Source: a virus. From it: a stretch of DNA of 64,000 bases. The first letter of the stretch is position 1. Each line of letters opens with the position of its first letter. Position numbers and translations under genes: made by a program. Below, one piece after another: positions 3,577 through 63,584 of the stretch. The notes under the pieces are model-generated. The model saw only the letters and a program-made list of their open reading frames with translations. It was not told the origin of the DNA and made no database searches. Location: positions 84,784-148,783 of the IMG/VR virus record IMGVR_UViG_3300044998_001357, one strand, 5' to 3'.

Positions 3577-3988
3577 TGGTAATGTAGTATCTCCTGGATA
3601 TGTTGCCGTATCACTGGATGAGCTTGGTATGGCGGTGGACGACGGAGAAGCTACGGAAATCATCGCATATAATGTAATTGATTGTATTTCACACAGGACT
3701 GTGGATGATTGTTTGGATGCCATCTTGCGCAAGCTTGCACACGGCGGACTGCTGGTTATCAGTGCCTGCGATTACCAGGCAGTTGCTCGTGCCATCACAC
3801 AAGGAAGGCTCAATCCCGAAGAGGTCAATGACCTACTGTATGGACCCCAGGATGCGGGTTTCTGGAGTACGCGCAAATCGGCTTACTCTATGGATATGTT
3901 GGTAAATTACTTTAAGCATAAAGGATACACAATTGAATCAGCGCGTTTCGATTTATATCAGGTGGTTCTATCTATTCGGAGGCCATAA
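3551..3988 (+). CDS. Class I SAM-methyltransferase-like protein (short or degenerate)
   Basis: RBS GGAG before ATG 3551; EIIAYNVIDCI...ILRKLAHGGLLVIS resembles the MTase C-terminal motifs; motif I is unclear. Confidence 0.55.
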   Translation: MKIRINVRDGNVVSPGYVAVSLDELGMAVDDGEATEIIAYNVIDCISHRTVDDCLDAILRKLAHGGLLVISACDYQAVARAITQGRLNPEEVNDLLYGPQDAGFWSTRKSAYSMDMLVNYFKHKGYTIESARFDLYQVVLSIRRP

Positions 3989-19634: not shown

Positions 19635-19951
19635 GCACACACAAACCCATTCTCGATAGTCGACCACAGGCCCAGTCGGAACTTAATCCACCTTTGCAAT
19701 CCTGCAAGGGGCGTAATGAAAAATTTTGCCGACACACCGCGAACTCCTTCATAATTTTATTTTTTAATTGTGTGAGTTATCGTTAGCGCCGTGCTCCAAG
19801 GCGCAACAGCGAAAAATAAAAATTTTGTGGTAGTCAAAGCTTGGACTCTGGAGATAGAATTAAGCAGGCCATGTTAAGGAGGAATACGTAAATACAGAAT
19901 AAGACAAGAGTCAAGAAACTAAGATTCTAGTGGTCGGTAGTAGACTGCGTC

Positions 19952-19957
19952 GGTGTA
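19952..19957 (+). promoter_or_regulatory. Candidate late promoter GGTGTA
   Basis: 27 nt upstream of ATG 19985, the first gene of the divergent tail operon. Confidence 0.5.
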
Positions 19958-19984
19958 GTATCTCCTAGGATAAGGGGGATTCTA

Positions 19985-60455: not shown

Positions 60456-60776
60456 GGGGCGCTGACGCCACAAGAAGAAACCGTCCGCACGGTGGGAAGT
60501 GCGGAACCCCAGACTGGGTGGGACACCGGAGATGCGGCCTACCGCATCGGACGTAGGTGTTACGGCGGACAACGTCCGCTTGGGGCCGAACGAGTAATCG
60601 TCGGACTTTCCCCTGGGGTACGCGGCATCTGAAAGGACCGCGTCTGGTGTGGCCGTGTGAGGCTTACACCAATCGTCGCACGCCACTAGCTCTACCTTCC
60701 TCGGAAGGGAGCCAGACGTGCAGAGGGGGACCGTAATCTCCTCGCGTCCGAAGGGTACGTCATCACCCTTCGCTAT
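60456..60776 (+). ncRNA. Candidate large structured non-coding RNA (unidentified)
   Basis: ~320-nt gap with no credible sense ORF and many stems (GATGCGG/CCGCATC, GGACGT/ACGTCC, ACGCGG/CCGCGT, TGGTGT/ACACCA, CCTTCC/GGAAGG, CGAAGGGT/ACCCTTCG). Confidence 0.45.
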
Positions 60777-60857
60777 GCAGAGTGGCCCACTCTCCATTGG
60801 GAGAGTGGGTTAATGCCCCAGCACTATGTGGTGTAGTGCTGGCCGTCACAAGGCGGC
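60777..60857 (+). ncRNA. Twister ribozyme, type-P5 permutation, copy 1 (predicted cut U60811/A60812)
   Basis: GCA-GAGUG-[P1 hairpin]-UAA-UGC-CC-[P3]-GCCG-UCACAAGG-CGGC; pseudoknots AC:GU and CC:GG. Confidence 0.85.
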
Positions 60858-60891
60858 ATTCGTGCGGAGACGCCGCTCCGCAAGGTGAACA

Positions 60892-61812
60892 ATGTTTGCA
60901 CTACCAATGGCCCCCACTCGGGGGGCTACCCCAAAAAAGGGGACCAAGGGGTACACACCCATTATGAGCATGGGGAAACTCCATGCTCTCACGAAGCGGT
61001 TGATGTCTGCCGCATCCCTTGAGGATGCGGCAGACATCCTCACTCAGGCAGCTGCTCAGCTGCCCGAGGGGAAAAGAAATTGGCGGTACTTCATACTGGC
61101 CCTCGCTGAGGGCCTACGGACACACAAAACGCCCTTCGCTGTCTTCGCGAAGGGCAACAGTAAGTTGCCATTCTACTCATTCTCCACACTGCCCCAGTAC
61201 ACGTGTCCTGGGGCAGGGGAGTGCCTCGACTTCTGCTACTCTTTCACCGGGTGGCGGTATCCCGCCACCTGGGCTCGCCAGGTACAGAACACACTGTACC
61301 TGCGCTTCCTCCCGGAGGTCATCCGGGAGGCTTTCCTCGGACTACCTAGTGATGTAGTGGTCCGACTATACGTGGATGGCGACTTCGGCAGCCATGCCGA
61401 CTTCGCCTTCTGGATGAACGCCCTAGCCGCCAGGCCCGACATTAGGGCCTACGGGTACTCAAAGTCTTGGGACATCATCTGGGAGTATTCCCGGACTGCC
61501 GCCGTCCCAAACAACTACGTTCTCAACTTGTCCTCTGGGGCAAAACCCCAGGGGGTTAGCAAAGAGCAGATGTTCACTCTCCCCTTTGTGCGGGGGGAGT
61601 TTGTGGCGGTCACCCCTCAGAGCGAGGGGATAGCCCGAGGGTTCAAACGGTACGACGACCCGGCCTACCATCGGGCGGTCAGAGCGGCCGCGAAGGAAGC
61701 CGGGATGGGCAAGGTGTTCTCATGCCCCGGCAAATGCGGGGAATGCTGTGGGGCCAACCATGCCTGTGGCATGATTGGCCTAAAGGTCACAATCGCTATC
61801 GGAACACACTAA
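60892..61812 (+). CDS. GP88-family (radical-SAM-like, Fe-S) phage protein
   Basis: GNSKL...TCPGAGECLDFCY, VRLYVDGDF, YGYSK, C-terminal CPGKCGEC...HAC; alternative start 60964. Confidence 0.75.
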   Translation: MFALPMAPTRGATPKKGTKGYTPIMSMGKLHALTKRLMSAASLEDAADILTQAAAQLPEGKRNWRYFILALAEGLRTHKTPFAVFAKGNSKLPFYSFSTLPQYTCPGAGECLDFCYSFTGWRYPATWARQVQNTLYLRFLPEVIREAFLGLPSDVVVRLYVDGDFGSHADFAFWMNALAARPDIRAYGYSKSWDIIWEYSRTAAVPNNYVLNLSSGAKPQGVSKEQMFTLPFVRGEFVAVTPQSEGIARGFKRYDDPAYHRAVRAAAKEAGMGKVFSCPGKCGECCGANHACGMIGLKVTIAIGTH

Positions 61813-61821
61813 CTAATACGA

Positions 61822-61857
61822 TGTTGCCCACCACTTCTGGGGAGGTGGTGGGCGATA
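61822..61857 (+). other. 16-bp intergenic RNA hairpin abutting the next RBS
   Basis: TGTTGCCCACCACTTC-tggg-GAGGTGGTGGGCGATA, with G-U pairs and no U-tract. Confidence 0.65.
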
Positions 61858-61869
61858 GAGGAGGTTCAA

Positions 61870-62229
61870 ATGAAGTTCCAGTTGAACTGTGTGGAGTTGA
61901 AGCTTGAGCTTGTGTCATCCGGGGACGGATGGCACAATGGGGTTGTGACAACCCCGGATGGGCAGGTTTTCCATGTGGGCGGGGGCTGGACGCATACGCC
62001 AGAGTCTGCCCTCCGCGATAACCACTGCCGTGGATTGGCGGTGGACGCTTGCCCCGGCATTCGCTGGCCGGGGGCGGTCGAAGAGGGGGAATTTGAGGCC
62101 TACGCCGGCGATGATATAGGCGACCTTGACGGCCTGCTTCGGGCCGTCGGCCTCTCAAACGAAGAGAGGCAGCAAGCAGTATGTGTGGTTCAGGACGCCT
62201 CACGCGAGGCGTTCCTGGCTCTAGACTAG
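61870..62229 (+). CDS. Hypothetical acidic early protein
   Basis: 119 aa, RBS GAGGAGG. Confidence 0.75.
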   Translation: MKFQLNCVELKLELVSSGDGWHNGVVTTPDGQVFHVGGGWTHTPESALRDNHCRGLAVDACPGIRWPGAVEEGEFEAYAGDDIGDLDGLLRAVGLSNEERQQAVCVVQDASREAFLALD

Positions 62230-62315
62230 CAGAGTGGCCCGTCCCCCTATAGAGGGGGGGCGGGTTAATGCCCCGGCTTGTCGCATGGTGCGGCAGTCGG
62301 CCGTCACAAGGCGGC
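62229..62315 (+). ncRNA. Twister ribozyme, type-P5 permutation, copy 2 (predicted cut U62266/A62267)
   Basis: Same core; P1 and P3 sequences differ but still pair (UGUCGCA/UGCGGCA). Confidence 0.85.
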
Positions 62316-62357
62316 ATTCACGCGGGGAGCCGCCCCGCGCAGGAGAAGATAAGACCG

Positions 62358-63458
62358 ATGGAAAAGAACATGCTCGTTATCCTCGGGGCATCCGACCCCG
62401 AGATGGCCCTTATCGAAGAGTTGTGCAGGGACTACAGCATCCCCTACGCCTACGCCATCGGGGGTGACGGTCGCCGGGTGCACCCCGGCGACGCCTATAA
62501 GGCATCAGGCCTGCAATGGCCTGGCAAGGCAGGCGGACCCGGGTGGGGGGATGTGACCCACTTGATTGAATGCTCGCCATCCGGCGAGCACCAGGACGCC
62601 ATACGCTCCGATGTGGTGGTGATTGACCACCACCGGCCGGGCGACCCCGGCTATGGTCGTGGTCCCGAGGAGTTCATGGCTGCCTCCTCGGTCGGGCAGT
62701 TCATTGCCGAGCTTGCCCGGCTCGGCATCTACGGATGTCGACATAGCAGTAACGACCCGGCCTACGACCTGTGGGGAGGCCGGGGAAAGGCGTTCGCCGG
62801 AGCAATCGACCGGCGAAAGGATTGGCAGTGGGACTACTATGTAGCCACCACTGCCCCCGCCTCGGGCGGGGTTATTGGTATCTCCTCTCGCGGCGCTCGG
62901 CGGTCCAGCGCCTCCGACATGGAGGCGTACGGGAAACGGGAAGGGGGGATGCTGTCCCCCGACGAGCGGCGCATCCTTGAAGACTCGTCCCCACCAGTGG
63001 AGAAGGTCACACTGCGTTGGGTTGCCATCCTGCAAGACATCGTGAGGGCCGCAGCGGCCGACCATTGCTTGGAGGCCGCATACCGGGGACGGTGCCCTGG
63101 GGTCGACCCCGATGCCCTCATGCGGTGGAGAGCGGACTCCCGTGCCGCTTTCCAGCGTCGGCCTGTCGAGGCCGTGCTGGCCGACATCGAGGCGGCACGG
63201 CAGCGGCTGCGAATGGCTTCATCGGGTGAATTCGCTGACCTGCGAGGGGAGTCTATCCCCGAGCTACCGGAGGCGGCGGCCCGGGAAGGAATTCCGTTCT
63301 TGGCCGACCAGACCGACCGCTCCGGTCGGCGCAAGGTGGTGCTGATGGCGGCACCGGCAGACCTTGTACAGCGGTTCTTGGCCGGGGAAATCGTCCCCAG
63401 CCTGGTGGACCACTACGGCGACCCCGCACGTGGGTTTGCCGGTGGTTACATACAGTGA
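62358..63458 (+). CDS. DHH-motif protein (DHH phosphoesterase-like)
   Basis: Start MEKNMLVILGASDPEM after AGGAG; VVVIDHHRPG; AAADH. Confidence 0.6.
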   Translation: MEKNMLVILGASDPEMALIEELCRDYSIPYAYAIGGDGRRVHPGDAYKASGLQWPGKAGGPGWGDVTHLIECSPSGEHQDAIRSDVVVIDHHRPGDPGYGRGPEEFMAASSVGQFIAELARLGIYGCRHSSNDPAYDLWGGRGKAFAGAIDRRKDWQWDYYVATTAPASGGVIGISSRGARRSSASDMEAYGKREGGMLSPDERRILEDSSPPVEKVTLRWVAILQDIVRAAAADHCLEAAYRGRCPGVDPDALMRWRADSRAAFQRRPVEAVLADIEAARQRLRMASSGEFADLRGESIPELPEAAAREGIPFLADQTDRSGRRKVVLMAAPADLVQRFLAGEIVPSLVDHYGDPARGFAGGYIQ

Positions 63459-63459
63459 T

Positions 63460-63545
63460 GCAGAGTGGCCCGCTCTCCCTATAGAGGGGGGAGCGGGTTA
63501 ATGCCCCAGCACTATGTGGTGTAGTGCTGGCCGTCACAAGGCGGC
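63460..63545 (+). ncRNA. Twister ribozyme, type-P5 permutation, copy 3 (predicted cut U63499/A63500)
   Basis: Same core; 55 nt identical to copy 1 (63495-63549 = 60807-60861). Confidence 0.85.
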
Positions 63546-63584
63546 ATTCAAGCGGGGACGCCGCCCCGCAAGGAGATGAGACCA

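Follow-up and report, generated by a model that had tools for sequence, protein, structure and literature searches.

Twister ribozymes have conserved letters in loops L1 and L4 and may carry the optional stems P0, P3 and P5 (PMC5408937). Here, we analyzed the last 64 kb (64,000 nucleotides [nt], "the window") of a 148.8-kb phage record of IMG/VR (IMGVR_UViG_3300044998_001357); the sequencing runs listed for this stretch are all of DNA and come from hot-spring and microbial-mat metagenomes. Three cassettes in the window, and two more elsewhere in the same record, are each a type-P5 twister by their sequence, with self-cleavage predicted, and each contains at the end of stem P4 the motif GGCAUU, which exactly complements AAUGCC, the first six letters of the predicted 3′ cleavage product. 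The ribozymes and their layout in phage operons are of an already known kind. The part that looks undescribed is the downstream strand, a candidate "anti-P2" strand that may re-pair the 5′ end freed by the cut. Such a strand is not described in PMC5408937, PMC6765202, or PMC7125110 (Roth et al. 2014 lies outside this comparison).

With the type-P5 twister of Rfam (RF02684), the cassettes share the core letters, stems P1, P2, and P4, the optional P3, both pseudoknots, and the U|A cut, and the intergenic position in phage operons is recurrent in this type (six copies in L073 and four in L075). However, neither the RF02684 model nor the reviews describe anything past P4, and three features set the present subfamily apart: the overlap of GGCAUU(C) with P4, a P2 of three base pairs (bp) with a mismatch at the fourth, and the lack of an A-rich junction. 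In the type-P1 twister (RF03160), the 3′ strand of P2 lies downstream of P4 (P4-gUAAA-P2b), so that the 3′ product keeps a helix beside its 5′ end. The downstream strands considered here occupy the place of that P2 3′ strand and would restore a type-P1-like arrangement after the cut. They differ from it in that they lack the P1 strand and the catalytic GAGNG and are therefore unable to support cleavage, in that they pair the two A's of the cut site, and, in this phage, in that they overlap P4.

Synthetic insulators of the RiboJ type place a ribozyme and a hairpin before the Shine-Dalgarno (SD) sequence; the upstream context is removed and a structured 5′ end is left. The cassettes described here are natural, contain a twister instead of a hammerhead, and may refold onto their own 5′ end, which is not a part of RiboJ. 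Inactive alternative folds in which flanks compete with core helices are known for the hepatitis delta virus, hammerhead, and hairpin ribozymes, and mostly act before cleavage or favor ligation in rolling-circle replicons. A comparable alternative inactive fold of twisters was not found in the literature searched. The glmS ribozyme is similar in that self-cleavage leaves a 3′ product with a 5′-hydroxyl end, the fate of which is set by a 5′-end-dependent nuclease: it is degraded by RNase J1 (PMC7125110). Because of this decay, hiding a 5′-hydroxyl end could matter. In glmS, however, the cut triggers decay of the message, whereas we propose the opposite, a new end that is hidden.

Twister cassettes and the strand behind P4

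Each cassette is intergenic, and its 5′ end abuts or overlaps the stop codon of the upstream gene. It starts with the 3′ strand of P2 and the catalytic GAGUGG, followed by a long P1 hairpin, the cut site U|AAUGC, P3, and P4, and continues with AUUC, two variable letters, a GC-rich hairpin, an SD sequence, and ATG. Rfam cmscan with the Twister-P5 model (RF02684; gathering score, 37.6 bits) placed the three ribozymes of the window, all on the + strand, at 60776..60857 (copy 1; 37.0 bits, E 4.4e-4), 62228..62315 (copy 2; 34.8 bits, E 1.6e-3), and 63459..63545 (copy 3; 38.0 bits). The gathering score is reached by copy 3 and missed narrowly by copies 1 and 2, which are its paralogues. According to the Rfam model, the cut falls after the U of UAAUGC, and the 3′ products begin at 60812 (cut between 60811 and 60812), 62267, and 63500. 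Two further cassettes were found by a pattern scan of the whole record at G000:C1:19157-19292 and 19821-19958, outside the window and at a distance of ~125 kb; they share the core and AUUC with the window copies and differ from them in P1, P3, and the hairpin.

The conserved core letters of L1 and L4 (GCAGAG.G, UAAUGC, and GUC.CAAG) are present in all five genome copies. P1 and P3 vary among the copies and their relatives yet remain paired, P4 is GCCG/CGGC, and P2 consists of three standard pairs and the mismatched fourth one. We rejected this mismatch as a special sign, as it is common elsewhere (34/80 other phage examples). Both pseudoknots (L1-L4 and L2-L4) are present, with GUG pairing to CAC and CC to GG. 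Furthermore, the T1 pseudoknot covaries in relatives: L1 GAGUGG goes with L4 UCACAAG and L1 GAGGGG with L4 UCCCAAG, the GGG/CCC combination being that of L014, L054, and L246.

The complementarity between the new 5′ end and the letters behind P4 is exact in five of five copies, at a spacing of 37-40 nt from AAUGCC to GGCAUU. In the window, script-checked coordinates place AAUGCC at 60812..60817, 62267..62272, and 63500..63505 and GGCAUU at 60855-60, 62313-18, and 63543-48; together with the invariant C that follows, the candidate strands span 60855..60861, 62313..62319, and 63543..63549. In copy 1, the P3 hairpin (60819..60841), which is kept in both predicted folds, is followed by P4/L4 (60842..60857; GCCG, an 8-nt loop, and CGGC, as judged from the Rfam alignment and the predicted folds), and the sequence GGCGGC at 60852-57 would permit a slip of the P4 5′ strand onto its first GGC. 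The P4 3′ strand ends with the GGC of GGCAUU, and since the RF02684 model stops there, AUU lies outside the core. The two pairings are mutually exclusive: UGC can pair either with the upstream GCA in P2 or within AAUGCC:GGCAUU, and GGC can be either in P4 or at the 5′ end. The initial annotation of the window had claimed this complementarity for the three window copies, the overlap with P4 and the extension past the core, and the exclusion of the active twister fold; all of this was borne out, and the complementarity extends to the two additional copies. Both AAUGCC and GGCAUU are invariant in the five copies of the phage, whereas P1, P3, the linker, and the hairpin are variable.

Relatives were sought in viral, metagenome, and genome collections with patterns that left the letters behind P4 free; loose pattern scans gave mostly chance matches, which were filtered out. 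This yielded 14 distinct cassettes on at least nine contigs, namely the five of this phage, two copies in L006, and those of L014, L054, L084, L243, L246, L247, and L249. GGC followed by AUU is also present in L242, a locus too short to be counted. Directly after P4, the letters A, U, and U are each found in 14/14 cassettes and C in 13/14, and the next two positions are free. Hence, GGC-AUU is conserved in 14/14 members of this long-P3 subfamily, while P1, P3, the two linker letters, and the downstream hairpin differ and one member, L249, is AT-rich. In L250, GCAUUC has moved 2 nt off P4 with its own GC included, and a 5-bp match is kept. Elsewhere in the viral collection, AUUC directly after P4 was found in one cassette only (L108, identical to L366). 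AUU as a general feature of twisters was rejected, as position +1 after P4 is A in about half of the type-P5 twisters and positions +2 and +3 are unconserved; a P5 stem between the 5′ flank and AUUC was rejected as well, as the flanks vary freely, AUUC is fixed, and there is no covariation. As judged from the aligned sequences, AUUC is a selected feature of the GGCAUU twister subfamily and not general to twisters. As a side observation, L054 contains on its − strand (position 3784 of the reversed locus) a second cassette beside the intact one, in which GUCCCAAG is followed by letters that are unable to close P4 and GGCAUU is missing; this may be a decayed copy.

Downstream strands in other phage twisters

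The comparison across families covered 170 distinct phage type-P5 twisters with intact P4, grouped into 98 clusters, and a helix was counted if it had at least 6 bp, included U3-G4-C5 of the product, and used a strand within 35 nt after P4. Such a helix to the new 5′ end is present in 30 of the 98 clusters; four control windows gave 7-12, and permutation of the tails gave 16.0±2.9 (0/1000 permutations reach 30). As single-linkage clustering of the tails chained via SD-like words, we grouped them by their P4-proximal 22 nt instead. With this stricter collapse, the helix is found in ~20 of 69-81 families (controls, 7-8; permuted tails, 12.5±2.5). Product position 6 is complementary to the letter that precedes a downstream GCA in 50/97 cases versus 62/276 controls (Fisher p=1.8e-7), and GCA is extended to GCAU in 37/101 versus 49/287 controls (p=9e-5). 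An extension of the pairing across the cut site was not above expectation in a manual count over the listed cassettes.

In the L005/L062/L079/L296 family, an A-U pair of the helix is replaced by G-C, and other changes retain G-U pairs. The partition-function pairing of nucleotides 1 to 5 to the tail is 0.392, whereas permuted tails gave 0.308±0.014. In 11 other lineages, a terminal helix of this kind, enclosing P3 and P4, is predicted as the minimum-energy fold of the 3′ product, and in six of them (L005, L079, L314, L091, L344, and L093), the minimum of the precursor, too, is the alternative helix instead of P2. The lineages with a terminal helix that were checked are Rfam Twister-P5 matches of up to 62 bits. 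In sum, re-pairing of the cut end by a downstream strand is supported by the statistics of sequences across phage type-P5 twisters.

Two observations concern the neighborhood of these ribozymes. The contigs L005, L062, L079, and L314 have type-P5 twisters beside sub-threshold type-P1 matches (32-44 bits; gathering score, 67.2) in neighboring intergenic spacers, and L079 has, in addition, a sub-threshold hammerhead match (31 bits; gathering score, 48.5). In L022 and L056, the tail behind P4 leads directly into another AAUGCAGAGUGA; this points to twister units separated by just a few letters.

Proposed re-pairing of the cut end and its alternatives

Our preferred explanation, to which we assign a probability of about 0.4, is that working twisters cut the phage RNA and that GGCAUU is a downstream anti-P2 strand which re-pairs the freed 5′ end. 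The type-P5 twister would cut the polycistronic early phage RNA just past the upstream stop codon. GCA, the partner of UGC at the cut site, precedes the catalytic GAG and is located in the 5′ fragment, and this fragment, held after the cut by the 3-bp P2 and a 3-bp pseudoknot only, would depart. The freed AAUGCC could then form a helix with GGCAUU as GCC, the 5′ strand of P4, slips to the first GGC in GGCGGC; this would result in a three-way junction with a blunt and fully paired 5′ end. The cut would thereby become irreversible and the upstream RNA would be released; the 5′-hydroxyl end, including the AUG at product positions 2-4, would probably be hidden from 5′-end-dependent nucleases and from ribosomes. 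We infer both the formation of this helix in vivo and the shielding of the new end from decay.

That slip is demanded by the predicted structures: the AAUGCC:GGCAUU helix forms only if the P4 5′ strand GCC moves by 3 nt onto the first GGC of GGCGGC. In the precursor, the alternative fold costs +3.4 to +5.6 kcal/mol even without a pseudoknot bonus, and cutting reduces this cost to +1.0-2.5 kcal/mol, at which the predicted share of the re-paired fold is about 3-30%. According to the model, cutting thus shifts the balance toward the alternative fold without tipping it, and as the two folds are close in predicted energy, an equilibrium rather than a clean switch is to be expected. The energy model includes neither coaxial stacking, which would favor the alternative fold, nor the T2 pseudoknot, which would favor the ribozyme-like one.

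The omitted T2 pseudoknot is one of several points that count against re-pairing. In the nearest-neighbor model, the minimum of the 3′ product retains P3 and P4. With a flank of 45 nt, the re-paired three-way junction lies 0.9-1.7 kcal/mol above this minimum in the three window copies and 3.1 and 6.7 kcal/mol above it in the two extra copies; with a flank of 28 nt, the values are +1.0-2.5 kcal/mol at 37 °C and +1.8-3.2 at 60-70 °C. Depending on copy and flank, the predicted share of the re-paired fold is 0.01-30%, and it is never the minimum. The C of AUUC faces the U upstream of the cut and is unexplained by the proposed helix. Short-P3 relatives (L112, L244, L245, and L261) have the same P4 and the same position 6 and lack AUU. 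Outside the GGCAUU family, the extension of the pairing to both terminal A's is not significant (10/88 versus 15/254; p=0.10), and the clusters of the cross-family comparison are incompletely independent phylogenetically. The initial annotation had suggested looking for covariation of the two strands in homologous cassettes; AUU is indeed kept in all 14, but AAUGC is invariant in all twisters, so that no covariation can arise within the GGCAUU family. Finally, an exact GGCAUU occurs by chance in 1.7-4.5% of the dinucleotide shuffles of one 84-nt product, which matters if one cassette stands alone, and the five copies of the phage are paralogues and not independent. Therefore, the window alone proves little, and the support beyond chance comes from the conservation in relatives and from the cross-family statistics.

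Weighed together, the conserved AUU and the enrichment, covariation, and folds seen across phages favor the earlier claim that the new 5′ end re-pairs after the cut, and the predicted energies in this phage, 1.0-2.5 kcal/mol above the minimum, do not. For the P4-overlapping variant of this phage, we consider the odds of re-pairing about even.

The rival that survives best is that AUUC is conserved for a role other than pairing to the 5′ end and that its complementarity to AAU is incidental; we regard this as possible, if doubtful. In the active ribozyme, AUUC could act as a tertiary element or as a junction particular to this family; alternatively, it could be an unpaired linker between the two stable hairpins that is cut by a host endonuclease, or a weak partner of the first SD letters. 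The conserved motif is AUUC, with a C for which the proposed helix has no use, and the 1.7-4.5% chance rate of the hexamer in one cassette fits an incidental match as well. A junction role finds support in the lack of an A-rich junction 5′ of GCAGAG in the GGCAUU family (A at −3 in 2/14 cassettes versus 57/88 other type-P5 twisters, and in 4/5 relatives without a P4-adjacent AUUC) and in the type-P1 consensus, where gUAAA joins P4 to the P2 3′ strand and could have its stand-in in AUUC. However, U alone matches that type-P1 junction, and within the viral collection, a P4-adjacent AUUC is confined to the GGCAUU family and the L108 cassette, which argues against a general twister junction. As to the other two roles, GC|AUU fits the RN|WUU preference of RNase E-type enzymes, and in the minimum-energy folds of several copies, UC or UUC is paired to the GA or GGA within the SD sequence. 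On the other side, L250 has relocated GCAUUC as a unit with its GC retained, and pairing gains in prior probability from the enrichment and covariation of anti-P2 strands across families. In any case, these alternative roles are compatible with pairing to the 5′ end. It may be added that in the GGCAUU subfamily, the letters 5′ of GCAGAG are set by the upstream stop codon (UGA or UAG).

It is improbable that the match has no function and simply follows from the core letters UAAUGC, a P4 that ends in GGC, and shared cassette ancestry. On the 5′ side, all twisters have five of the six letters in common, and P4 dictates the GGC, which leaves the free AUU as a 1-in-64 coincidence, and the copies are paralogues; however, AUU(C) varies no more than the catalytic core despite fully diverged stems, loops, and linkers, including those of a cassette of very different composition. 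The initial annotation had also considered that the competing folds gate cleavage depending on upstream translation or transcription speed. In this reading, the least probable of the explanations, the pairing would hold transcripts that fold or cut slowly in an inactive state, so that transcription speed or the ribosomes of the upstream gene set the cut fraction. In its favor, P2 and P4 are incompatible with the pairings, the ribozyme adjoins or overlaps the upstream stop codon with its 5′ end, and the alternative helix is the precursor minimum in the six lineages named above. In the precursor of this phage, however, the alternative lies at +3.4 to +5.6 kcal/mol with two pseudoknots uncounted, the complementarity stops right at the cut site, where C faces U-1, and the competing strand is transcribed last, which makes gating before the cut unlikely in the light of the model.

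Downstream of AUUC, hairpins are located at 60864..60881 in copy 1, followed by a weak SD sequence and ATG at 60892; at 62322..62338 in copy 2, followed by SD and ATG at 62358; and at 63552..63569 in copy 3, followed by the SD sequence AAGGAG at 63570-75 and ATG at 63576 or 63585. As had been noted before, they carry GCCGC(C/U), at 60872-77 (GCCGCU), 62329-34 (GCCGCC), and 63560-65 (GCCGCC), but the second pairing derived from it, GGCGGC:GCCGC(C/U), was rejected for lack of conservation and for its energy. One of the two extra copies has no GCCGC and the other only CCGCC, GCCGC being absent from the hairpin of the second (G000-19821), and the motif is missing or shortened in L014, L243, L247, and L249; when forced, the pairing costs +3.9 to +8.0 kcal/mol (P ≤ 0.001).

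The genes that flank the cassettes are small phage genes, one of them a match to Pfam GP88. A hairpin after AUUC (usually GCGGGG, a loop, and CCCCGC) followed by SD recurs in relatives on other contigs (L006, L242, L243, L054, and L084), and several downstream genes start with Met-Glu-Lys; this recurrence indicates that the repeated unit begins at the stop codon and extends into the opening codons of the following gene. All 3′ products begin with A-AUG. The AUG of copy 2 (62268) is in frame with the downstream gene and is listed with it as a single open reading frame of 396 amino acids (window 62268-63458), and the 5′-proximal AUG of copies 1 and 3 opens a frame of seven codons. Unless paired, the 5′-terminal AUG of the 3′ products could be a leaderless start.

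The role of twisters in phages and bacteria is unresolved; processing of polycistronic RNA into pieces of differing stability or translation has been suggested only (PMC6765202). As a tentative generalization, many phage type-P5 twisters may carry an accessory strand between P4 and the next ribosome binding site that closes the remnant 5′ end after the cut and the departure of the 5′ fragment. Cleavage would thereby become irreversible, and the message downstream would be protected or insulated; in this phage, GGCAUU would then be a compact, P4-overlapping variant that works via a register slip of 3 nt. If this is true, incomplete cleavage of long run-off transcripts in vitro is predicted, and the cassettes would provide a natural design rule for ribozyme insulators. 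The re-pairing strand would couple the cut to the structure that the new 5′ end adopts and would explain how a message with a 5′-hydroxyl end could escape decay of the glmS type.

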